A stretch of 64,000 nucleotides of DNA from Candidatus Aenigmatarchaeota archaeon (GTDB lineage Archaea > Aenigmatarchaeota > Aenigmatarchaeia > CG10238-14 > SpSt-28), in assembly GCA_038742305.1 (NCBI GenBank), contig JAVYKI010000004.1, forward strand, positions 19 through 64,018. The letters run 5' to 3'. Positions 1 through 33,928 of the stretch are shown here, one piece after another. Positions within the stretch are counted from its first letter, which is position 1. The number at the start of each line of letters is the position of its first letter. Both the position numbers and the translations under genes were made by a program. The notes under the pieces were generated by a model. That model worked only from the letters and a program-made list of their open reading frames with translations, was not told the origin of the DNA and searched no databases.

Positions 1-198
1 TTCGAAAAGAATAAAGTTCCTTCTAATGTCGATAAAATTAGAAGATATGTTTCTCAAAAACTTAATCAAGAAGTTAGCTGGAATACTGTGAAAAAATATT
101 TAGAAGAGCTTGTAAAATTAGACAAGTTAAAGAAGATAATTTTACCTCATTCAAAAGAAAAAGATAAGGAAGGATTAACTCTTTATGAACCTAAATGA
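1..198 (+). CDS. 3' end of a CDS running in from upstream; C-terminal winged-helix-like segment
   Basis: Frame 1 is open from base 1 to a TGA at 196-198 (…VSWNTVKKYLEELVKLDKL…). It was not in the ORF track because it lacks a start in the window. Calling it an Orc1/Cdc6-like C-terminal winged helix is a guess. Confidence 0.3.
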   Translation, partial: FEKNKVPSNVDKIRRYVSQKLNQEVSWNTVKKYLEELVKLDKLKKIILPHSKEKDKEGLTLYEPK

Positions 199-1114
199 AA
201 TTATAAGAGAATTTCTGAAAAAAGGTTATTTTATAGATGAAGAGGTTATAAAATCTTTTAGTGAAGAAGAACTGAAAATAGTTTTATCTAAAATTTCAAA
301 AACAAGTAAACCTATTAAACTTTCAAAAGAAAAAATTCTTGAAATACTTTCGCTTCCTGAAAAGATAGAAATAGTAAACTTAGCTAGAAAAGGTGAAGTT
401 TCAATGATTGAAGTTTCTAAAATTATAAAAGAAAGGTATGATTATTTTTATAACTTACTAGTGAATAAAACTTTTTTACCTATAGTTTCGATAAATAAAA
501 TTGGAAAGTTTAAAAACTTCGGAATTATAGGCTTAGTTTATGGAATAGAAGGGAATAAAATATATGTCGAAGATATAACCGGAAAAATTGCTATAGAAAA
601 TATTTCAAATAAAAAAGTTTGGGAAGATTCTTGTTGTTTATTCGTTTGCAAAAAAGAAGATAATAAAATTTTGTGTAACGAAATAATTTATCCCGAACTA
701 ACTTTTTCTTCTTTTGAAAGAGAAATTGTCATTACTTTTAATAAAGAGTCTTCTTCAAAAAATCTAAACGCAATTATTTATGATAAAGAAGTAAAAATCG
801 AAGAAAATAGGGTATATCTAAATTTTGAAGTTCAGCCTTGTTTTCAAGTAAAAATTAACAATTCTTTAATAGTTTTTATAGATTTAAATAAAGTTAGCTT
901 TGATTTGGAAACTATTAAAAAGACTAGATTAATAGAAACAAAAATAGAGAAAACAATAAAATATGGAAGAGATATTTTCTTGTTAAAAGAATCTCCAAGC
1001 GTTTTTGTATTAATTGGAAAAGAAACAAAAATAATTGAAAAAGAGCCTTTTGTTGTAGAAATTTCGGAAAATGTAATTTTAGATTCAAGAAAAAAAGAAA
1101 TTATTAACATTTAA
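185..1114 (+). CDS. hypothetical protein; possible degenerate DP1-like (PolD small-subunit-like) N-terminal plus OB-fold protein
   Basis: 309-aa ORF ending 42 bp upstream of polB. The N-terminus (EFLKKGYFIDEEVIKSF) and a central block (GIIGLVYGIEGNKIYVEDITGKIAIEN) recall the DP1 N-domain and OB fold. No phosphoesterase metal-binding motifs were seen. Confidence 0.5.
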   Translation: MNLNEIIREFLKKGYFIDEEVIKSFSEEELKIVLSKISKTSKPIKLSKEKILEILSLPEKIEIVNLARKGEVSMIEVSKIIKERYDYFYNLLVNKTFLPIVSINKIGKFKNFGIIGLVYGIEGNKIYVEDITGKIAIENISNKKVWEDSCCLFVCKKEDNKILCNEIIYPELTFSSFEREIVITFNKESSSKNLNAIIYDKEVKIEENRVYLNFEVQPCFQVKINNSLIVFIDLNKVSFDLETIKKTRLIETKIEKTIKYGRDIFLLKESPSVFVLIGKETKIIEKEPFVVEISENVILDSRKKEIINI

Positions 1115-1155
1115 GTATAGAAAAGTTTTTAAATTAAAAGGTAAGAGCTATTTAT

Positions 1156-3819
1156 ATGAATGTAAAATTTGTGCTTCTAGATGCTGATTATGTAATGCTA
1201 GAAAACAAACCGATTATTAGAATTTTTGGTAAAACTCCTTCAAACCAATCTATTACTATTTTCTTCACAGATTTCTTTCCCTATTTTTATGTAAAAACAA
1301 AATCTGTAAATAAACTTTTAGAGTTTTTGGAAAGGTTTAGAAATGAAATAGTAAAAATTGAGGAAGTGGAAAAACATGAGCCAATAGGTTATAGTGAAGA
1401 AAAAGTTAAGCTAATTAAAATAACTTTAAAAAATCCTTCAAAAGTTCCTGAAATAAGAGAAGAATTAAATAAGCAAAGCTTTGTTGAAAAAACTTATGAA
1501 GCTGACATCCTTTTTAAGTATAGGTTTTTAGCAGATAAAAATCTTTCTGGAATGAAATGGTATGAAGCAGAAGGAAATTTTGTAAATTCAGAAACTGTTT
1601 TTTCTGAACTTAAATTTGAAGCAAAAAATTTTAAAGAAACAGAAGATATTCAATTTGAGCCAAAAGTATTATCTATTGATATAGAATGTTTTAACGAAAA
1701 AGGCAAGCCAGACCCAGAAAAGCATCCTATTATTTTAATTTCTTTAGCTTTCAGCCATGAATATAGAGGTTATAAAAATCTAGTTTTAGCTTCAAAGAGA
1801 ATTCCTTTTAATAACAACTTATTTTCTTTTGAATCAGAGGAAAAAATGTTGGCAGAGTTTTTAAGAATATTGAGAGAATATGATCCAGATTTAATAATAG
1901 GTTATAACATTGTAAATTTTGACCTTCCTTATATAGTAAAGAGAATGCAAGTTAAAGGAATTAAACCTTATTTAGGAAGAGCAAAGAAAATTCCTAAAGT
2001 TGAAAAAATTTCAGAAGGAAAGTATAGAGTATCTATAGTTGGTAGAATCGTTTTGGATATTTACGAAATTTTAAAGGAAATGTCTAAAAAAGGTATGTTT
2101 AAATCAAAGAGATTAGGGTTAGGAGATGTAGCTTCTATATTAATTGGAGAAACAAAAGTTGATATAGATAAAAGCGAAATTCCAAAGCTTTGGAACGGCA
2201 ATTTAGAAGATATTAAAACTTTAATAGAATATTCAAGAAAAGACGCTGAATTAGTTCTAAAATTGTTTTATAAGCTTGATGTTTTTAAATCCTATTCTGA
2301 ATTATCAAAATTAACTGGCTTGTTAATGCAGGATGTTTTAAGTGGTTCAGAATCTCAAAGAATAGAAAATTTATTGTTAAGAGAATTTAATAAAAGAGGT
2401 TTTGTTTTACCAAATAAGCCGAGTAAAAAAGAACTAGAAGAAAGAAAAACAAAAGAAATAAAAGGTGCAATAGTTTTAGAGCCAATATATGGCTTGCATT
2501 CAAACGTTATTTATTTAGATTTTAAATCTCTATACCCAAGCATAATTATTGAATATAATATTTGCACGACAACGCTTTTATTAAACGAAAGAAAAGATTT
2601 AAAATATATTCAAACTCCTTATGGAGCAAAGTTCGTTTCTAAAGAAATAAGGAAAGGTATAATTCCCGAAATATTAAGCTTTTTAATAGAAGAAAGAGAT
2701 AAAGTTAAGAAACAAATGAAGCAAGAAAAGGATGAAGAAAAAAAGAAAATACTAGATGCAAGACAATGGGCTTTAAAAATTTTGGCCAATGCTTTTTATG
2801 GTTATTCTGGATATATAAAGGCTAGATTATTTGTATCTGAAATAGCAAATTCTATAACTAGCTTTGGAAGATATTGGATTACTACTATAAAGAACATTTT
2901 TGAGAATGAGCTAAATAGAAAAGTTGTTTATGGGGATACAGATTCTGTAATGGTGAAAGGTTTAAGCGAAAATTTAGAAGATTTATTTAAAGAAGCTGAA
3001 AGTTTAGAAAAAGAAATTAATTCTAGAACACCACCTTCAATTAAAATGAAAGTGGAAGGAATTTTTAAAAAGATAGTATTCTTAACTAAGAAAAAATATG
3101 CTGGTTATTTGTTTGAAAGCCCAAAAGAAGAGGGAAAAATTATAATGAAAGGAATAGAAACTGTGAGAAGGGATTGGTGTGATCTAGTTACGGAAACTTT
3201 AACAGAATTTTTTAGAATAATTTTAATTGAAGGAACAACAGAGCAGGCAATTAATTATTTGAAAAATGTAGTAGAAAAGTTGAGAAAAGGCGAGATAGAT
3301 GTTGAAAAGCTTGGAATAGTAAAAACTTTATCAAGACCTCTTAATGCTTATAAAGGTCAGCAGCCGCATGTAGAATTAGTTAAGAAAATGATAAAAAGAG
3401 GAGAACCAAATATTCCTTCTGTTGGAGATAGAATTACTTACGTTATTGTTGCTGGACCGCAAAAAATTGTGGAAAGGGCTGAAACAGTAGAATATGTAAA
3501 GAAAAATAAAATACCGATAGATGTTAATTATTATTTAGAGCATCAATTGTTACCGCCACTAGAAAGGGTTTTAGAAGTTTTAGGTTATACAAAAACTCAA
3601 TTTTTAACAGGAAGCAAACAAATTTCTATTTTTTCTATAATTAATTCTCAAAATAATGGTAATGGAAAATCTGCAATTAAAGTTTCTGAGCTTGAAGGAT
3701 TTATTTGTGAAAATTGCAATCAAGTATATAGAAGACCTTTTTTAACTTTAAAATGTGAATGTGGAGGAAAAATAGTTTTTTATTCTAGAAAATATAAATC
3801 AGAAACAATTATAATTTAA
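1156..3819 (+). CDS. polB: family B DNA polymerase with 3'-5' exonuclease domain
   Basis: Exo I LSIDIECF; Exo II YNIVNFDLPYI; motif A DFKSLYPSII; motif B KILANAFYGYSGY; motif C VYGDTDSV; C-terminal Cys cluster CENCN…CECGG. At 887 aa there is no room for an intein. Confidence 0.95.
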   Translation: MNVKFVLLDADYVMLENKPIIRIFGKTPSNQSITIFFTDFFPYFYVKTKSVNKLLEFLERFRNEIVKIEEVEKHEPIGYSEEKVKLIKITLKNPSKVPEIREELNKQSFVEKTYEADILFKYRFLADKNLSGMKWYEAEGNFVNSETVFSELKFEAKNFKETEDIQFEPKVLSIDIECFNEKGKPDPEKHPIILISLAFSHEYRGYKNLVLASKRIPFNNNLFSFESEEKMLAEFLRILREYDPDLIIGYNIVNFDLPYIVKRMQVKGIKPYLGRAKKIPKVEKISEGKYRVSIVGRIVLDIYEILKEMSKKGMFKSKRLGLGDVASILIGETKVDIDKSEIPKLWNGNLEDIKTLIEYSRKDAELVLKLFYKLDVFKSYSELSKLTGLLMQDVLSGSESQRIENLLLREFNKRGFVLPNKPSKKELEERKTKEIKGAIVLEPIYGLHSNVIYLDFKSLYPSIIIEYNICTTTLLLNERKDLKYIQTPYGAKFVSKEIRKGIIPEILSFLIEERDKVKKQMKQEKDEEKKKILDARQWALKILANAFYGYSGYIKARLFVSEIANSITSFGRYWITTIKNIFENELNRKVVYGDTDSVMVKGLSENLEDLFKEAESLEKEINSRTPPSIKMKVEGIFKKIVFLTKKKYAGYLFESPKEEGKIIMKGIETVRRDWCDLVTETLTEFFRIILIEGTTEQAINYLKNVVEKLRKGEIDVEKLGIVKTLSRPLNAYKGQQPHVELVKKMIKRGEPNIPSVGDRITYVIVAGPQKIVERAETVEYVKKNKIPIDVNYYLEHQLLPPLERVLEVLGYTKTQFLTGSKQISIFSIINSQNNGNGKSAIKVSELEGFICENCNQVYRRPFLTLKCECGGKIVFYSRKYKSETIII

Positions 3820-4388
3820 TGATAAACTGGATAACAGAAATCGATAAAAATATTAGTTTATTCTTTTTAAATTTTAAAAACCCAATTTTAATTTCATTTT
3901 TCATAGATTTGTACTATTTATTTTACTTTGTTTTCCTAATTTTTATATTATTCGTTTATTTTATAGAAAGAGATAGAAAAAAATTTAGAAAAATAGCAAT
4001 TATTACATTAATAGGCTTTATATTGGTTTTTTCTTTGAAATTTTTAATTAAAAGGGAAAGACCAGAAACTTCTTTAATAATTAAAACAGATTATTCTTTT
4101 CCTTCTTCACATTCATTCTTTTCTACAGTTCTTTTCGCTTTTTCCGGAAGCGGTTTTATAGGATTGTTATTTAAATTAATTTCTATACTTTCTTTTATTT
4201 CTCTTCTTTATATTCAAGTTCATTATTTTTCAGATGTAGTCTTTTCTATTCTCCTTTTTCTTTTTATCAACTATTTTTATAACTTTATAGAGAATTTCTT
4301 AAAATTAGCAGAAAAGAAGAAACTAGAAGTAGGAAAGATAACCATTCAAAGAAGAAAAATAAAGGTAAAGAAAGCAAGAAAAGAGTAA
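3819..4388 (+). CDS. PAP2-family membrane phosphatase (possible dolichyl/undecaprenyl pyrophosphate phosphatase)
   Basis: Polytopic membrane protein carrying the three PAP2 signature blocks KRERP, PSSHS and HYFSDV. Start overlaps the polB stop (TAATG). Confidence 0.8.
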   Translation: MINWITEIDKNISLFFLNFKNPILISFFIDLYYLFYFVFLIFILFVYFIERDRKKFRKIAIITLIGFILVFSLKFLIKRERPETSLIIKTDYSFPSSHSFFSTVLFAFSGSGFIGLLFKLISILSFISLLYIQVHYFSDVVFSILLFLFINYFYNFIENFLKLAEKKKLEVGKITIQRRKIKVKKARKE

Positions 4389-5640
4389 AGGAGATTAATT
4401 TAACATTTCTCTTTATTAAAGAGATAAAAACAATAGATAAAGGTAAGAACAAAGTGTATACTGGATTATACAAAACGGAAATCGAGCTTATTAATAGTAA
4501 AAATATATAACTTAGATTGAACTTTTTGCTTAAAAATGTAGCAACTAAAAGCAAAATAGAGAAAATTAATAGAAATGGCTTAAGCAAAAAAGCTAAAAAG
4601 GATAATAGAAATAGAAATTCTATCTTTTCTTTTTTAAGAATTAAAACTACAAGAACCGAAAGGAAAACTATAAAAGAGATAATGTCTAGAGTAAATATTT
4701 TGAAGCTTTTATTTTCTTCAAAATGTATTGGAGAAGAGGAATAAAACTTTATATATTCTAAGCTTTTCTTATCTATTGGAGTTTCAGAAATTATTAAAGT
4801 AGAAATTTTGTTTTGAAGTTCGAGAGTAAATGGTATGTAAAAAGAGAAAAGAGATTTGTTATCAATTTCTATTTCAATCGGATTTTCAAAATATTTTTCG
4901 TTAAAAATTATTTTAATTCCGCTTTGATTTAATATTTTTTCTAAAATATTAATGCAAAAATCTTTTAGCTCTATGTTTAAGTAAAGAAATGAATATACTC
5001 TTCTAATTTCATTATAATTAAAACTTTTTATGCAAGATTGATTAAAAAGAAAATATTTTAAAATAGCCGAATTATTTGATATTGTAATATTTTGCCAATT
5101 TTTAATTTCTTCTATTTCATAAGTTTTGTTATCAAATTTTACTGTGTTGTTTTCTATTGGAAGATTAATTAATGTATAAAATTTTACTTCTTTAATTTCT
5201 TTTAGCTTATAATCAGGCTCTTTAAAGTAAACTTTATCAAGCTCTTGATAATAATCTAATTTTGATAATTTTAATCTTTCTATATTTTCTGCTTTTGCTT
5301 CATATCTATTAAAATTTATTGGAATGTTAATCAAATTTCTTTTAATTTCATTTACTTCAAAATAAGAATAATTAGAAAAAACACATTTATACATTCCGCT
5401 TTCAGTTAATAAAAAGAAAGTTTGATTTTCTTTTAATTTTTGAATAAAATTAAAGAAATCACTTTTAGATAAAGGTTTTATGTTTTGCGAATTTGATATA
5501 ACATTTAATAATTTTTCATTAAAAATTTGTTTTTCGCAAGAGTTTGTGGAAATTGTTAAATATGAAGAAGTAAATAAAAGTGAAATAGCTATTGAAGCTA
5601 CTATGCTAATTATTAATATACTTTTAAATGTCAACTTCAT
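4285..5640 (-). CDS. membrane-anchored, sequon-rich putative surface glycoprotein
   Basis: N-terminal signal/TM helix, roughly 300-aa extracytoplasmic region with many N-x-S/T sequons, then a C-terminal multi-helix hydrophobic region. It lies directly downstream of aglB on the same strand. Confidence 0.6.
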   Translation of the reverse strand: MKLTFKSILIISIVASIAISLLFTSSYLTISTNSCEKQIFNEKLLNVISNSQNIKPLSKSDFFNFIQKLKENQTFFLLTESGMYKCVFSNYSYFEVNEIKRNLINIPINFNRYEAKAENIERLKLSKLDYYQELDKVYFKEPDYKLKEIKEVKFYTLINLPIENNTVKFDNKTYEIEEIKNWQNITISNNSAILKYFLFNQSCIKSFNYNEIRRVYSFLYLNIELKDFCINILEKILNQSGIKIIFNEKYFENPIEIEIDNKSLFSFYIPFTLELQNKISTLIISETPIDKKSLEYIKFYSSSPIHFEENKSFKIFTLDIISFIVFLSVLVVLILKKEKIEFLFLLSFLAFLLKPFLLIFSILLLVATFLSKKFNLSYIFLLLISSISVLYNPVYTLFLPLSIVFISLIKRNVKLISFTLFLLSLPLFFFFEWLSFLLLVSSFLLILRNSL

Positions 5641-7912
5641 AAATTTTAACTTCAGGATTATTAAATACTAGCTTAAAGTACTTCATATCTTTACCATTTA
5701 AGAAATAAAGTTTTGCAAAAACGCTGTTAGCAAGCTCTTCATCCGCTAAATATAAATAAGCAGGTAATTGAAGGTTTCCTAAATTAAAAGTAAGCAAAGG
5801 ATCCCCAAAAATTACTAAATTTAAGGTATTCGAGTAGCCAGCATCTTGAGCTTTATAAATTATTGGTTCATTATTAATGCTTAAAACAACTTCTTTAACA
5901 GGCTCATTTCTTATAAATCCTACTATTGAATTGTTTCTAAAAGTTAAATAAATTGGCACTTCTATAATTTGATTTCCAAAAGCTTGATAGCTAACGTATT
6001 TTATTCTATTTTCTTGACTATTTTGAATATCTATTGTGGCTATTCCAAAAACTTTCCCTTCTGCAAGCTTTTTATTATAGAAAAATTCTTCAATACCTTC
6101 TTTTGTATAGCAAATCGCTGTATTAGGATAATATTTTCTAATGCAAGAAGAGAAGTAATAAGGCCAATAAAATTTATAAATTAAATCTTGGGAAGCAATA
6201 AAGTAAATTTTGTTTATTTTAATATTGCAAATACTTTCGTTAAAGAAAGGAAAAGCTTCTTTAACTTTTTTACAATCTTCTTGTGAAATTTGTGAATACT
6301 TTTTCAATAATTCATATGCTTCTGTTTCGTTCGTAGTAGTTAATATTCTACCCATATCCTGTATCCTAATATCGTGATTATAAGGAATGCAATGTTCCCA
6401 ACCGCAATGAGCACCGTCTGCATGAACTTTTAAATTTGTATATCCAGCAAATATATGTCCAGGGTCCCACCAAGTTGCCACTAATGTAGTTTCGTTTCCA
6501 TTATTTTTCAAAAAATCTAAAGCTTTTCTCCAATTTTCATTAACTTCCATACCTCTCATATTATTTGCTAAATCGTTGGCTTGAGAAATATAAAAGAAAG
6601 ATAAAACTAATAAAGAAGCAAAATAGAAAGTAATTAAAAACTTGGAAATTTCTAAATCTTCTTTATATTTCTTTTTTAGAAAGTTTTCTAGTTTTGTAGA
6701 AAATTCTGATATTAAAATAGCTAAGCGACTTACTGAAAATCCTGTAAATATCGATAATGCTGTTGAAAATAATAGCCCAAATCTAACACCTTGAGAAATT
6801 AAATATAGAGAAAGAACAAACCAAACAAACAAAAACATTTCATTTAAAGTAAATTCTTTTCTTTTTATAATTTTTTCTAAAAAGATTATACTAATTCCAA
6901 AAATACTAAAGTAAAGTGGAAACATTCCTACTCTTGCTACAACTTCTTGGCTAAAAATGCTAATTCTTTGCAATTCCGCTACAGAAACGTTTACTAAAAG
7001 TGCATGAGTTAAACCACCTTTTATTAATAATGTTAACTGACCTATAAAAGTGTCTAATGGTTTTGGAAGAGCTAAATAAGGATAAAATATTTTTTCCAAA
7101 ACTATTGAAAGAAGTTGAATAAAAATTAATAAGGAAATAAAAGAAAAGAAGAGGAAAAGTTTATCATTAAACAAAATTATTTTTTTGTTTTTGAAATAGT
7201 TTTTTGCTATTTCTAAAATATAATAAAAGAAAAGGAAAGCTAAAAAAATGTTTGAAATATAATAAGCAGAATTCCAGTTAAAAGCAAAAAGTAAATAAGA
7301 AAAAGCAGAAAAGAGAAAAACTGCCAAAAAATTTAAAATCGTCTTTTTATTTTTCCAAAATTCTTTATTTCTTTCCAAAAAGTTTAAAAACATTAGGGTT
7401 GAAAGTACAGTTAGAAAAGTATAAGTTACATAAATAACATCACTATCAACATATCCAGCCATAGAAACAGAAATAAAAGCGGGGCTAAACGCTATAACTA
7501 TAGTAGAAATAATTGATGCAAAAAAGCTTCTAGTTAAATAATATGCTAGAGCAAATCCTATTAAGCATGCAAAACCAACATAATAAACAACAAAATATAC
7601 ACTAAACTTTTCTAGGCTTATTTCTATAAATTTTGAAACTAAAACATAAAAGAAAGCAATAGTATAAGAATATCCATCAACAAAATAAGGTCTTCCTGGA
7701 GGGAAATAGCTTAGAGTATCCCAGCTAGGTGGAACTAATCCTAGACCATTTTTATAATTTTCAACAATTTCTTTTGCATGCCTATAGAAAAACCATGGGT
7801 CATAATCCATTGGTATATCAACATAAGAAGTTTTTAATCTTATAAACATTGCAAACCATATAACAGTTATCAATATGCTAATCCAAGCTAAATTTTTTAA
7901 TATACTGTTCAT
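5624..7912 (-). CDS. aglB: archaeal oligosaccharyltransferase AglB (STT3 family)
   Basis: About 13 TM helices N-terminally, DxD in first loop (PMDYDPWFF), and a WWDxG catalytic motif (ATWWDPGHIFAGY) at the start of the periplasmic domain. Confidence 0.9.
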   Translation of the reverse strand: MNSILKNLAWISILITVIWFAMFIRLKTSYVDIPMDYDPWFFYRHAKEIVENYKNGLGLVPPSWDTLSYFPPGRPYFVDGYSYTIAFFYVLVSKFIEISLEKFSVYFVVYYVGFACLIGFALAYYLTRSFFASIISTIVIAFSPAFISVSMAGYVDSDVIYVTYTFLTVLSTLMFLNFLERNKEFWKNKKTILNFLAVFLFSAFSYLLFAFNWNSAYYISNIFLAFLFFYYILEIAKNYFKNKKIILFNDKLFLFFSFISLLIFIQLLSIVLEKIFYPYLALPKPLDTFIGQLTLLIKGGLTHALLVNVSVAELQRISIFSQEVVARVGMFPLYFSIFGISIIFLEKIIKRKEFTLNEMFLFVWFVLSLYLISQGVRFGLLFSTALSIFTGFSVSRLAILISEFSTKLENFLKKKYKEDLEISKFLITFYFASLLVLSFFYISQANDLANNMRGMEVNENWRKALDFLKNNGNETTLVATWWDPGHIFAGYTNLKVHADGAHCGWEHCIPYNHDIRIQDMGRILTTTNETEAYELLKKYSQISQEDCKKVKEAFPFFNESICNIKINKIYFIASQDLIYKFYWPYYFSSCIRKYYPNTAICYTKEGIEEFFYNKKLAEGKVFGIATIDIQNSQENRIKYVSYQAFGNQIIEVPIYLTFRNNSIVGFIRNEPVKEVVLSINNEPIIYKAQDAGYSNTLNLVIFGDPLLTFNLGNLQLPAYLYLADEELANSVFAKLYFLNGKDMKYFKLVFNNPEVKIYEVDI

Positions 7913-8412: not shown

Positions 8413-9531
8413 TTATTTAAATACTTTAAAATTCCTTTGCTTTTTTATAAAATTTAAAACAAAAGATTTTTTAAACGCTTCCATATCTAGCTTTTTTAAT
8501 TCTTCTTCAAGCTCTTTTACATTTTCAAAAATTTTTATTAGTTTTGCATCCCTTACAGCTTCTCTAACTTTCCAAACCCCTAAAGATGCCGCCAAAGAGC
8601 TTTTTATTTTTCTATAAATAATTACTGCTGCTTGTTTCTTAATTTTATACAAATATTCGCATATTCCTAATTTTGCTGCATAGTAGCCGCCTGCAACATT
8701 TTCTGGATAATCTTTTCTTCCAAACAAACCTTCAAAATCATGATAAATATTTTTGTTATAAATTTCGAAAATTTCGTAAATAAAGCTGTATGGCAAAAGA
8801 AAAATGTAATATTCATTATTTAAATATTCGTTATAAAGAAGCATTGGTTTTTCTATAAATTCGAATTCTCTAATTTGTTTTACTAAAAAATCAGAAATTA
8901 TAGAATCTACTGCTGTTATGCTCCATCTTGTTGGAACTAATTTTCTTTCGCTATATTTTCCAATTAAACCAGCTGAAAAAATTTTTTCTATTCTAGAAAT
9001 TTCTAAATTTTTTGTATAAAGCTCTATTACCGCTTCTCTAGCTTTTATATTTTCATTTATCAAATCTTCTACAATTTTTTCAGCAGAAACGTTATCTACA
9101 ATTTTTACTTCTTGAATTAAAGTTGGATTGCCTATTGGACGAGAAAACTTGAAAAAAGTTATTTTAAAAGAAGGTTTTTTAATTTTTAATTCTACATCTA
9201 TAGGTCTTTTGGATAGAGTAATTTCCTGGAATTTTTCTAGTAGTTTGTTTTTCGAATAAACATTTTCTTTAGTAAAAGAATAAACTAAGTTAGCTCTTAA
9301 TTTTAATATTGAAATTTCATCTAGCCTTTCTTTATACCATAGCTCAGGATAATCTAGAATATAAGACCTTTCATCTTCTTTATAATTTGTTAATATGCCA
9401 ATATTTGTAATAGGGTAAGATTTCGAAGAAACAAAAATGCTTGGAGGAGAAGTTCCAAACAAATTTTCTTTAAGCTTTATAATTTTATAAACTTTAAAGA
9501 ATTCTTTTCTTATTTCTTCAGGAATTTTCAT
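8413..9531 (-). CDS. conserved hypothetical protein (no family recognised by eye)
   Basis: 372-aa soluble protein whose stop overlaps the upstream flavin-reductase-like gene (4-nt overlap). No motif recognised. Confidence 0.55.
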   Translation of the reverse strand: MKIPEEIRKEFFKVYKIIKLKENLFGTSPPSIFVSSKSYPITNIGILTNYKEDERSYILDYPELWYKERLDEISILKLRANLVYSFTKENVYSKNKLLEKFQEITLSKRPIDVELKIKKPSFKITFFKFSRPIGNPTLIQEVKIVDNVSAEKIVEDLINENIKAREAVIELYTKNLEISRIEKIFSAGLIGKYSERKLVPTRWSITAVDSIISDFLVKQIREFEFIEKPMLLYNEYLNNEYYIFLLPYSFIYEIFEIYNKNIYHDFEGLFGRKDYPENVAGGYYAAKLGICEYLYKIKKQAAVIIYRKIKSSLAASLGVWKVREAVRDAKLIKIFENVKELEEELKKLDMEAFKKSFVLNFIKKQRNFKVFK

Positions 9532-10495: not shown

Positions 10496-10615
10496 GGGTG
10501 GCGGCCAAAGCGGCCGGGAACCACCCGTACCCGTTCCGAACACGGAAGTGAAACCGGCCAGCGTACTCCCGAGTACTGCTGCGCATGCAGCGGGAAAGGG
10601 AGTGCGCCGCCACCC
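10496..10615 (+). rRNA. rrf: 5S ribosomal RNA
   Basis: A GC-rich island of about 120 nt in AT-rich DNA. Termini pair (GGGTGGCGGCC… …GGCGCCGCCACCC) and conserved internal blocks (CCGAACACGGAAGT, AGTACTG) are present. Confidence 0.9.
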
Positions 10616-10650
10616 AATTACTTTTAATTAAGTTTTTTATATTATGCTTT

Positions 10651-10723
10651 GCCCCGGTCGTCTAGTGGTCTAGGATGCGGGCCTGTCACGCCCGAGACCC
10701 GGGTTCGAATCCCGGCCGGGGCG
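10651..10723 (+). tRNA. tRNA-Asp (anticodon GUC)
   Basis: Cloverleaf read by eye: acceptor GCCCCGG/CCGGGGC, anticodon stem CGGGC/GCCCG with loop CUGUCAC, T-arm CCGGG-UUCGAAU-CCCGG. It lies 35 nt after the 5S gene with an A/T-rich TATA-like tract (cttttaattaa) about 25 nt upstream. Confidence 0.9.
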
Positions 10724-10755
10724 AAGAAAAAATAAATAAAACTATTTTAAAAATT

Positions 10756-32372: not shown

Positions 32373-33272
32373 ATGAAATTAAAAATTTTCTCTCTAGTAT
32401 TACTAACATTTATTATAGTAGCGCTTTTTTATTTGAGAGAAGAAACATCAAATTTAATTTCTCAGGAAAATTTTTATTTTGCATTGGAAATTCTTTTAAT
32501 TTTTCTAGCTTATTTATTCTTAAGCATTTTTATTGATTTTACTATTAAAAATAAATTGCATTATTCTGATTCGGAAGCTTTGAAAAACTTACTAAAGTTA
32601 CTTTTTGCATCTTTTTTATTTTTTTATATTCTTTTTAAAATTAGAATAGAAGGTTTAGGAATAGTTGGTGGAACTGTTTTTGGATTAGTTTTAGGTTTAG
32701 CTGCTCAGCATACATTAGGAAATTTGTTTGCAGGAATATTGCTTATAGCAACTAAAGTAATTAAGCCAGGGGATAAAATTTCAGTATTAAGCGGTTCAAT
32801 TCCTGTATATTCTTTAATTTTCCCCCCTTATAAATTTTACTCTTATGATTATTATTTACCTTATAAAGGAGTAGTTGAAGAAGTCGGTTTGTTCTTTAGT
32901 AAAATAAAAACTGAAGACGGTTTAATAATGAGAATTCCGAATTTAGCTTTTCTTTCTGGAGCAATAGTTAATTTAACAGAATCTAAAAAAGAATTTCTTA
33001 AAGTTTTTGTAAGAACAGAAGTTCCTATTTTTGCCGATATAGACAAAATTATTGAAAAAATTGATAAAGAGCTTAAAAAATATACTTCTTCTAGATTTGT
33101 TTTAGAAAACATATTTATAAGAGAAATTAATTGGTCAGTTCCAGATAAACCTAATTATATTCTAATTATAGAATGTAAAATTAAAGGCTTTGACGAAGAT
33201 TTTACAAGAAATTTAATAATTAAAACTGTAGGAAAAATAATTAAGAAAGAAATAAAAAAGCTGAGCAAATAG
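32373..33272 (+). CDS. mscS: small-conductance mechanosensitive channel (MscS family)
   Basis: TM helices followed by the MscS pore-helix signature GLAAQHTLGNLFAGILL. Confidence 0.85.
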   Translation: MKLKIFSLVLLTFIIVALFYLREETSNLISQENFYFALEILLIFLAYLFLSIFIDFTIKNKLHYSDSEALKNLLKLLFASFLFFYILFKIRIEGLGIVGGTVFGLVLGLAAQHTLGNLFAGILLIATKVIKPGDKISVLSGSIPVYSLIFPPYKFYSYDYYLPYKGVVEEVGLFFSKIKTEDGLIMRIPNLAFLSGAIVNLTESKKEFLKVFVRTEVPIFADIDKIIEKIDKELKKYTSSRFVLENIFIREINWSVPDKPNYILIIECKIKGFDEDFTRNLIIKTVGKIIKKEIKKLSK

Positions 33273-33375
33273 CTACAGCTGTCTACCCCGCTTTTAGCGG
33301 GGGGTGGATTTGAACCACCGACCTCCGGGTTATGAGCCCGGCGGGCACTCCAGGCTGCCTTGGGCCAGCTGTAGC
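33272..33375 (-). tRNA. initiator-type tRNA-Met (CAU) locus with apparently circularly permuted halves
   Basis: Minus strand reads [IR arm GCTACAGCTG]-GCCCAAG-[D-arm GGCA/GCCUGGAG/UGCC – anticodon arm CCGGG-CUCAUAA-CCCGG – AGGUC – T-arm GGUGG-UUCAAAU-CCACC – 3' acceptor CCCCGCU-A]-AA-[AGCGGGGUAG = 5' acceptor strand plus nt 8-10]-A-[IR arm CAGCTGTAGC]. Three G:C pairs at the base of the anticodon stem and the A1:U72 pair are initiator hallmarks. No 5' acceptor strand exists upstream of the D-arm. Confidence 0.6.
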
Positions 33376-33406
33376 TATCATTAAAAATATTTTTCTTCTT
33401 AATATT

Positions 33407-33928
33407 ATGATTTTGAGTGATGTAGAAATAAGAGAGTATTTGAAGAAAGGTTTACTTTTGAAGAATTATAAAGAGGAAAATATTACTTCTTGCTCTGTGG
33501 ATTTAACTTTATCTAACGAAATAGCAATTTATGAAGATATAGGAATTCCTTATATTGATGTGAAAAATTCTCCTAAAATTAAAACTTTGAAAATAGAAAA
33601 CGAATTTTATTTGCAGCCAAAAAGCTTTGTTTTAGCTACTACAGAAGAATATATAACTTTGCCAGATAATATTGCTGGAATAGTTGATGGAAAAAGTAGC
33701 TTAGCAAGAAGAGGTTTATTAGTTCATGTTTCTTCAAGCTTAGTTGATCCTGGATTTGAAGGAAACCTTGTTTTAGAAATGTTTAATGTTAATAATGTTC
33801 CAATAAAAATTTATAAGGGAATGAAAATTGCAAAAATATTTTTTATAAAATTAAGTTCCCCAACTTCTATTCCTTATAATAAAAGAGAAGATGCAAAATT
33901 TAAGCATCAAAAAGAAATAAAATTGTGA
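33407..33928 (+). CDS. dcd: dCTP deaminase
   Basis: IAGIVDGKSSLARRGLLVH active-site block. The tracked ORF start at 33332 overlaps the tRNA and is replaced by the internal Met (MILSDVEIREYL). Confidence 0.85.
   Translation: MILSDVEIREYLKKGLLLKNYKEENITSCSVDLTLSNEIAIYEDIGIPYIDVKNSPKIKTLKIENEFYLQPKSFVLATTEEYITLPDNIAGIVDGKSSLARRGLLVHVSSSLVDPGFEGNLVLEMFNVNNVPIKIYKGMKIAKIFFIKLSSPTSIPYNKREDAKFKHQKEIKL

Follow-up and report, generated by a model that had tools for sequence, protein, structure and literature searches.

The window analysed here is a 64,000-nucleotide (nt) stretch of DNA with a GC content of 26.4% from a Candidatus Aenigmatarchaeota metagenome-assembled genome, i.e., from the phylum of the published system in which an inactivated DP1, the small subunit of DNA polymerase D (PolD), occurs together with a family-B DNA polymerase (PolB). 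At its left end three genes follow one another on the forward strand (+): the 3' part of a small winged-helix-like open reading frame (ORF; 1..198), a gene for a 309-residue protein that we call mini-DP1 (185..1114), and a PolB gene (1156..3819). The mini-DP1 ORF starts with ATG, and its product is deposited in GenBank as MEM0480876.1, "hypothetical protein QXQ14_01685". An initial annotation had proposed that it encodes a short DP1-like OB-fold protein, either a partner of PolB or a PolD remnant. The ORF is present exactly as described there, and both of the quoted peptides, EFLKKGYFIDEEVIKSF and GIIGLVYGIEGNKIYVEDITGKIAIEN, are found in its translation. Ten window proteins are identical to GenBank entries (MEM04808xx/MEM04809xx) assigned to Candidatus Aenigmatarchaeota archaeon. 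The gap to polB, given there as 42 bp, is 41 nt, 42 being the count from the last base of the stop codon to the ATG. This AT-rich spacer (1115..1155, +) contains a T5 run as well as putative TATA-like (TTTAAAT) and Shine-Dalgarno-like (AAGGT) elements.

We identified 11 close homologs of the 309-residue protein and, using an exhaustive HMMER search with the 11-sequence profile, ~106 distant ones of ~300-400 amino acids. The close-homolog alignment has 43 invariant columns among relatives of 43-61% identity. Judged by this conservation and by the number of homologs, the gene is not a chance ORF.

Homology of mini-DP1 to DP1 and loss of its active site

Searched as a single sequence, mini-DP1 gave zero Pfam or NCBIfam matches even at E<=10 and nothing in the PDB, and the curated Pfam and NCBIfam thresholds for the DNA_pol_E_B, Metallophos and DP1 models were not reached. 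The profile of the 11 close homologs did not match the PDB either, and homology to DP1 became visible only once the exhaustive HMMER search had enlarged the family. A profile of 96 sequences (A2) matched Thermococcus kodakarensis DP1 (6knb_A) with E=3.3e-36 and the Pyrococcus abyssi DP1 structures with 1e-31 to 1e-33, followed by human POLE2 (E=9e-5) and the isolated N-terminal domain of DP1 (2kxe, E=8e-4). To exclude that members with phosphoesterase (PDE) motifs carry the DP1 signal, we built a further profile (A3) from 19 relatives, all without such motifs. A3 still matched 6knb_A across the linker and the OB fold that comes after it, with profile positions 60-184 aligned to residues 121-261 (full-sequence E=2.4e-15) and the C-terminal end matching weakly; with A3 alone, 2kxe reached an E value of only 0.11. 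No unrelated family scored comparably to DP1 in the A2 and A3 searches. When the 96 relatives were compared singly with Pfam, nine matched DNA_pol_E_B (sub-threshold where listed), seven Metallophos, six Metallophos_2, seven an OB-fold model and one the Pol δ subunit OB domain. Scans of GTDB genomes with the DP1-like alignment, and with PolB, returned zero relatives.

These searches bear out the DP1-like OB fold proposed in the initial annotation, in which VEDITG aligns with (I/V)ED(A/K)TG of DP1, and they yielded a significant DP1 match with no better unrelated family. The DP1-like N-terminus is likewise supported and is the weakest leg of the homology, carried by the A2 match to 2kxe and by the structural similarity to POLE2 described below.

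AlphaFold2 predicted the fold of mini-DP1 with very high confidence when given the 96-sequence alignment (predicted local distance difference test (pLDDT) 95.1, predicted template modelling score (pTM) 0.89); a model from 11 sequences was poor (pLDDT 61.6) and was set aside. A Foldseek comparison of the model with the PDB returned, as its top 30 matches, exclusively DP1 and the B-subunits of Pol ε, δ, α and ζ, with E values from 1.8e-11 to 4e-5. The best match was human POLE2 (7pfo_A, E=1.8e-11, 516 alignment columns against a 527-residue chain); 6tny_B was matched with E=3.5e-10, and TMq to DP1 was 0.57-0.59, up to 0.59 against P. abyssi DP1. OB folds of the RPA/Ten1 type ranked below these 30 matches, covering ~80 residues with E>=4e-4. 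The parallel to eukaryotic B-subunits that had been drawn at first is thus sustained at the level of the predicted structure, and also by the DP2 Zn-III-like ribbon of the neighbouring PolB (see below).

The model and the alignments divide mini-DP1 into four parts. The N-terminal helical domain (185..355, +; residues 1-57) resembles that of DP1 and B-subunits, with four predicted helices (3-12, 19-23, 27-36 and 48-56) and pLDDT >90, and is followed by a long linker helix in the AlphaFold2 model (residues 74-92). The OB fold (491..694, +; residues ~103-170) has predicted strands within 111-168 and contains the invariant motifs V128-E-D-x-T-G133 and Y169-P-E171. The remaining residues 171-309 (695..1111, +), mostly β, form a remnant of the calcineurin-like PDE domain, i.e., part of the fold and not the whole fold. 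Its C-terminal segment aligns weakly with DP1 423-492, including the KKxR(H)L motif and the former motif-V strand.

The initial annotation had seen no phosphoesterase metal-ligand motifs, and a regular-expression search of the 309-residue protein for D-x-H, GDxxD, GNHD and GHxH indeed found none. We then compared alignment columns with PDE-intact relatives, which carry FISDLH, LGD, GExD, xHG and GHFH. In mini-DP1, motif I (D-x-H) has become E188-S-S190, the segment with motifs II-III is deleted, the motif IV His is replaced by D233, which is invariant in the close family, and motif V (G-H-x-H) reads I277-G278-(gap)-K279, so that both of its His residues are gone. The stretch from P170 to R248 measures 78 amino acids in mini-DP1, as against 122-143 in the six relatives with both motif I and motif V and ~170 in DP1 6knb (from the HMM alignment). 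The DP1 signature LLKxRHxxP is retained as K245-K-T-R248-L, and the two residues bounding the shortened stretch are conserved in 95/96 (R248) and 92/96 (P170) family members. Both motifs I and V are kept in 6 of the 96 members, one of the two in 4 and neither in 86, and 58 of these 86 have a shortened N-terminal half of the PDE domain. By its sequences, the 96-member family is a graded decay series with the window protein near the reduced end. Judging from the profiles and the predicted fold, mini-DP1 is related to the PolD small subunit but is much reduced in size and catalytically dead.

The adjacent polymerase and the proposed role of mini-DP1

The PolB gene (1156..3819, +) encodes an 887-residue protein (MEM0480877.1) with a polymerase domain (Pfam DNA_pol_B, E=3.8e-117) and an exonuclease domain (exo1, E=5.8e-40); among PDB entries it is nearest to Thermococcales PolB and Pol δ. 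Its orthologs in Aenigmatarchaeota form a large, uniform clade of >100 proteins of ~880-915 amino acids. One Aenigmatarchaeota ortholog (P0197) is 1251 amino acids long and contains an intein (PF14528 and PF14890 intein/homing-endonuclease domains).

The C-terminus of PolB carries a four-Cys zinc ribbon (3697..3783, +; C851, C854, C867 and C869) that is homologous to Zn-III of DP2. A profile of PolB tails (A4) matched Zn-III of T. kodakarensis DP2 (6knb_B, residues 1126-1162, E=4.7e-8) and P. abyssi DP2 (6hms_B, residues 1119-1153, E=4.2e-7). The ribbon signature, F-C-x-KCN-x-x-YRR-x-PL-x-GKC-x-CGG-x-I, is nearly identical to that of DP2, and the loop of the window PolB reads V-Y-R-R-P. The four Cys residues are invariant in all 31 aligned PolB tails, and 101/119 PolB homologs have exactly four Cys in their last 60 amino acids. 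The C-terminal fragment as sole query gave no homologs, and full-length PolB was used instead. In DP2, Zn-III is followed by a helical bundle, which the window PolB tail lacks. In the cryo-electron microscopy structure of PolD, the Zn-III loop (KxRRxP) is described as inserting into an electronegative groove at the interface of the DP1 OB and PDE domains, and the affinity of a 20-residue Zn-III peptide for DP1 is given as nanomolar (PMC6355029).

The two genes are also linked in relatives of the window locus. In the window and in loci L001-L010, of which L001 and L002 are close relatives, a DP1-like gene precedes a PolB ortholog encoded on the same strand, and it adjoins PolB in 9/10 distinct loci. 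The neighbouring PolBs are 42-71% identical to the window PolB, the gap between the two genes is 1-76 nt in L003-L009, and the adjacency is retained across lineages ranging from 21% to 40% GC. It is shared by PDE-intact DP1-like members (L004 and L008). We considered whether truncation of the PDE domain tracks loss of the DP2 helical bundle and rejected such co-evolution, since the PolB tails are the same beside intact and truncated DP1-like genes; the neighbour PolB of the PDE-intact member in L008 has the same short single-ribbon tail.

Taken together, mini-DP1 is probably a catalytically dead DP1 descendant that acts as the non-catalytic B-subunit of the neighbouring PolB with its DP2-derived Zn-III ribbon. 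In this Aenigmatarchaeota lineage DP2 would have been replaced by a PolB whose C-terminus has kept nothing of DP2 but the Zn-III ribbon. The ribbon would dock via its basic YRRP loop into a groove between the OB fold of mini-DP1 and the residual PDE domain, on the model of Zn-III in PolD and of the second zinc module (CysB/Zn-2) within the eukaryotic Pol α and ε C-terminal domain (CTD). Proofreading would be carried out by PolB's own exonuclease domain, which would have left the nuclease site of DP1 free to decay and to be partly deleted. By analogy with eukaryotic B-subunits, the N-terminal helical domain probably links PolB with further factors of the replisome. The PolB partner and the PolD remnant, first put forward as alternatives, are not mutually exclusive, and both would hold for a DP1 remnant kept as PolB partner.

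Several points weigh against such a partnership. Physical binding of the truncated form to PolB is inferred. The helical bundle of DP2 also contacts the PDE domain in PolD, and without it the interface would be smaller; moreover, the ribbon in the window sub-clade has the spacing CxxC-x12-CxC, not CxxC...CxxC. Acidic residues at former ligand positions (E188 and D233) mean that a residual single-metal site is, strictly speaking, conceivable from the sequence. The absence of DP2 is judged on the 64-kb contig alone, in which no ORF exceeds 887 amino acids. As to possible co-transcription with polB, the 41-nt spacer holds both the T5 run and the TATA-like element, the corresponding gap in L002 is 321 nt, and in L001 a 103-residue ORF with long hydrophobic stretches (L001:6912-7223) lies between the DP1-like gene and polB. 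This ORF is absent from the window and from L002, so that the two genes need not form a strictly contiguous operon. Finally, L011 and L012 (Aenigmarchaeota GCA_018304635.1) are an exception to the linkage, as their DP1-like gene and PolB lie 6 kb apart.

Mini-DP1 could instead be a decaying relic of PolD, a functionless, pseudogene-like DP1 leftover that sits beside polB only by ancestry. The loss of every catalytic His, the deletion of ~60 PDE residues and the failure of any curated profile to recognise the protein are what a relic would predict. We nevertheless regard this as improbable, as the frame is intact in all homologs found and the sequence is well conserved (43 invariant columns at 43-61% identity; R248 in 95/96 and P170 in 92/96 members), with the OB fold and the surrounding conserved residues preferentially retained. 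The very confident fold prediction and the tight PolB adjacency across lineages of 21% to 40% GC also argue against a relic.

It is still harder to believe that mini-DP1 is a stand-alone OB-fold protein that binds single-stranded DNA in the manner of RPA or Stn1-Ten1, independently of PolB. The OB portion alone does match Ten1, RPA14 and RPA32 in Foldseek (E ~4e-4 to 1e-2), and the A2 profile weakly matches RPA2 and RPA14 (E=0.026 to 0.2). However, the RPA/Ten1 matches cover ~80 residues with TMq ~0.2, whereas those to DP1 and B-subunits extend over the whole chain with E values 6-8 orders better. The conserved basic DNA-binding residues of the DP1 OB fold are described as lost in eukaryotic B-subunits (PMC6355029), so the non-catalytic forms are not defined by DNA binding, and the conserved linkage with a PolB that carries a DP1-docking ribbon points to a polymerase subunit. 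A still-active nuclease or phosphatase with a metal site remodelled around E188 and D233 is barely credible: two former ligand columns do hold acidic residues, D233 is invariant in the close family and PDE-intact relatives exist within the family, but a calcineurin-type binuclear site cannot form because motifs II and III are deleted, both His of motif V are gone and the motif I His has become Ser, and PolB keeps its own exonuclease domain.

Neighbouring genes and other features of the window

The winged-helix-like ORF upstream of mini-DP1 (1..198, +; ~85 amino acids) is truncated at the edge of the window, and its 3' end overlaps the mini-DP1 start at 185 by 14 nt; it had not been mentioned in the initial annotation. 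Orthologs sit immediately ahead of the DP1-like gene at L001:5760-6017, L002:977-1234, L003:273-542, L006:5728-5988, L007:825-1085, L008:7769-7984 and L009:7740-7991, with a second, paralogous copy just upstream in L006 and L007. The ORF is 71-89 amino acids long across loci; in L001-L003, as in the window, it overlaps the DP1-like gene. The motif SWNTVxKYxxELV is invariant, most full-length copies start with MKRGRP (AT-hook-like), and LPHSKE is present in most copies. Pfam gave only sub-threshold winged-helix matches (TBPIP/Hop2 winged-helix in 7/7, best 5.4e-5), and a profile of the ORF found nothing significant in the PDB.

The winged-helix-like protein may either regulate the DP1-like/PolB cassette or be its third component. 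In Pol32/p66, a winged-helix domain at the N-terminus binds the B-subunit. Going by synteny alone, the winged-helix protein might play the part of that domain, and together with mini-DP1 and the Zn-III-ribbon PolB it might make up a minimal three-subunit Pol δ-like holoenzyme, although we think this rather unlikely. If true, mini-DP1 would be the smallest B-subunit scaffold (N-terminal domain, OB fold and half a PDE domain) that can still connect a family-B polymerase with the replisome.

The DP1-like gene in the two loci where it is separated from PolB (L011:6832-9089 and L012:6793-9089) bears PDE motifs and encodes a 362-residue protein (MBS3055869.1, 'metallophosphoesterase family protein'). 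It overlaps the stop codon of cdc6/orc1, with PolB downstream. The canonical replication arrangement is oriC-cdc6-DP1-DP2. The layout of L011 and L012 resembles the canonical cdc6-DP1-DP2 operon minus DP2 and may be ancestral in the phylum.

Downstream of polB, a gene for a PAP2-family phosphatase (3819..4388, +) begins at the polB stop codon with an ATGA overlap. It is followed on the opposite strand by genes for a 451-residue protein that is rich in hydrophobic stretches and gave no Pfam match (4285..5640, -) and for a 762-residue oligosaccharyltransferase of the STT3/AglB type (5624..7912, -; Pfam STT3 5.2e-12). The order PolB, PAP2, ~430-residue ORF and ~745-residue ORF is repeated in L001 and L002. 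At a distance of ~4.6 kb downstream of polB, the opposite strand encodes an archaeal Nre protein (8413..9531, -; Nre_N 5.4e-70, Nre_C 1.6e-22); Nre is a PCNA-associated putative DNA-repair factor. Further along (10497..10724, +) lies a stand-alone 5S rRNA gene, with a tRNA-Asp gene ~35 nt after it.

At ~33270..33377 (-), the sequence suggests a circularly permuted gene for an initiator tRNA-Met(CAU). The order of its parts would be D-arm, anticodon arm (CAU), T-arm, 3' acceptor strand with the discriminator, a 3-nt spacer and the 5' acceptor strand AGCGGGG followed by UA; initiator identity is proposed because the acceptor stem has A1:U72 and the anticodon stem GGG/CCC. The whole permuted unit lies between the two arms of a perfect 12-nt inverted repeat, TAGCTACAGCTG / CAGCTGTAGCTA. 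Rfam reports a tRNA at 33.7 bits with the D-arm 'deleted', and the matched stretch has 66% GC compared with 26% for the genome. ARAGORN finds no tRNA in the native order and calls tRNA-Met once the two parts are rearranged. The unit overlaps the start of a mechanically called ORF (33332..33928, +).

Comparison with known polymerase systems and significance

In the description by Kazlauskas et al. (2020, NAR; PMC7544198), PolBs of the B6 group, mostly from Aenigmarchaeota, have C-terminal zinc motifs, and the closest resemblance of the single-motif form, "B6-aenigma1", is to the zinc motif of the DP2 CTD. The same account presents a DP1 group, "Aenigma_GB_GCA_002789635-like", as inactivated, which its authors explain by the gain of a proofreading PolB (PMC7544198). 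DP2 is described as missing from most Aenigmarchaeota (PMC7544198; PMC12680538). A 2025 paper in Nat Ecol Evol presents the tail of Aenigmatarchaeota PolB as a "degenerate DP2CTD" and describes, from yeast two-hybrid experiments and AlphaFold 3 predictions on Aenigmatarchaeota proteins other than ours, an interaction of DP1 with PolB-DP2CTD; two-motif "B6-aenigma2" sequences are argued there to be Baldrarchaeia contamination (PMC12680538).

The window locus belongs to this already published Aenigmatarchaeota system of PolB and inactivated DP1, as an extreme example and not as a new kind. It shares with the published system the phylum, the dead PDE site in DP1, the single DP2-like zinc motif on PolB and, as far as the 64-kb contig goes, the lack of DP2; the family is linked to the published group only through members annotated as Aenigmarchaeota, e.g., MBS3055869.1. 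Unlike the published Aenigmatarchaeota DP1, mini-DP1 is missed by Pfam and NCBIfam and has lost roughly half of the PDE domain's N-terminal part, motifs II-III included, although the published group may already include such short forms. In the descriptions of the system given in PMC7544198 and PMC12680538 we found neither the adjacency of the PolB and DP1 genes nor the upstream winged-helix gene. What the locus adds is the degree of reduction, which falls below curated profiles, the graded series, the tight linkage and the upstream winged-helix gene.

Compared with archaeal DP1 (P. abyssi 5IHE/6HMF/8PPT and T. kodakarensis 6KNB), mini-DP1 has the same order of N-terminal domain, OB fold and PDE domain and the same EDxTG motif. 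The LLKxRHxxP motif of DP1 corresponds to KKTRL; DP1 docks a Zn-III ribbon with a basic RRxP loop, and the same docking is presumed for mini-DP1. In contrast, archaeal DP1 has ~600 residues or more, five metal motifs, an active Mre11-like 3'-5' exonuclease and DP2 as its partner, whereas mini-DP1 has 309 residues, no His ligands and PolB as its presumed partner. The eukaryotic B-subunits (POLA2, POLD2, POLE2 and the B-subunit common to Pol δ and Pol ζ) are non-catalytic DP1 descendants with an OB fold and an inactive PDE domain; on a family-B catalytic subunit, the part that they bind is its Cys-rich CTD, and they are the best structural matches to mini-DP1. Their PDE fold, however, is still of full size, and their partners carry a helical bundle and two Cys modules (CysA and CysB), while mini-DP1 has a truncated PDE domain, a partner with one ribbon and no bundle, and ~10% sequence identity to them.

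Among archaeal arrangements, an inactivated DP1 paired with a PolB that has a DP2-derived zinc tail comes nearest to eukaryotic Pol α/δ/ε. Such a pairing is central to current models of the origin of the eukaryotic replicases, and the window locus leaves this established picture unchanged. It indicates that the DP1 partner can decay much further than has been reported, and that surveys scoring DP1 as present or absent with standard hidden Markov models could undercount it. The conserved cassette with the winged-helix gene offers a compact system for biochemical tests of B-subunit function. The graded series of DP1-like proteins beside one kind of PolB, in turn, indicates which parts of the subunit are indispensable, i.e., its N-terminal domain, its OB fold and, with the KKxR motif, the C-terminal portion of its PDE domain.

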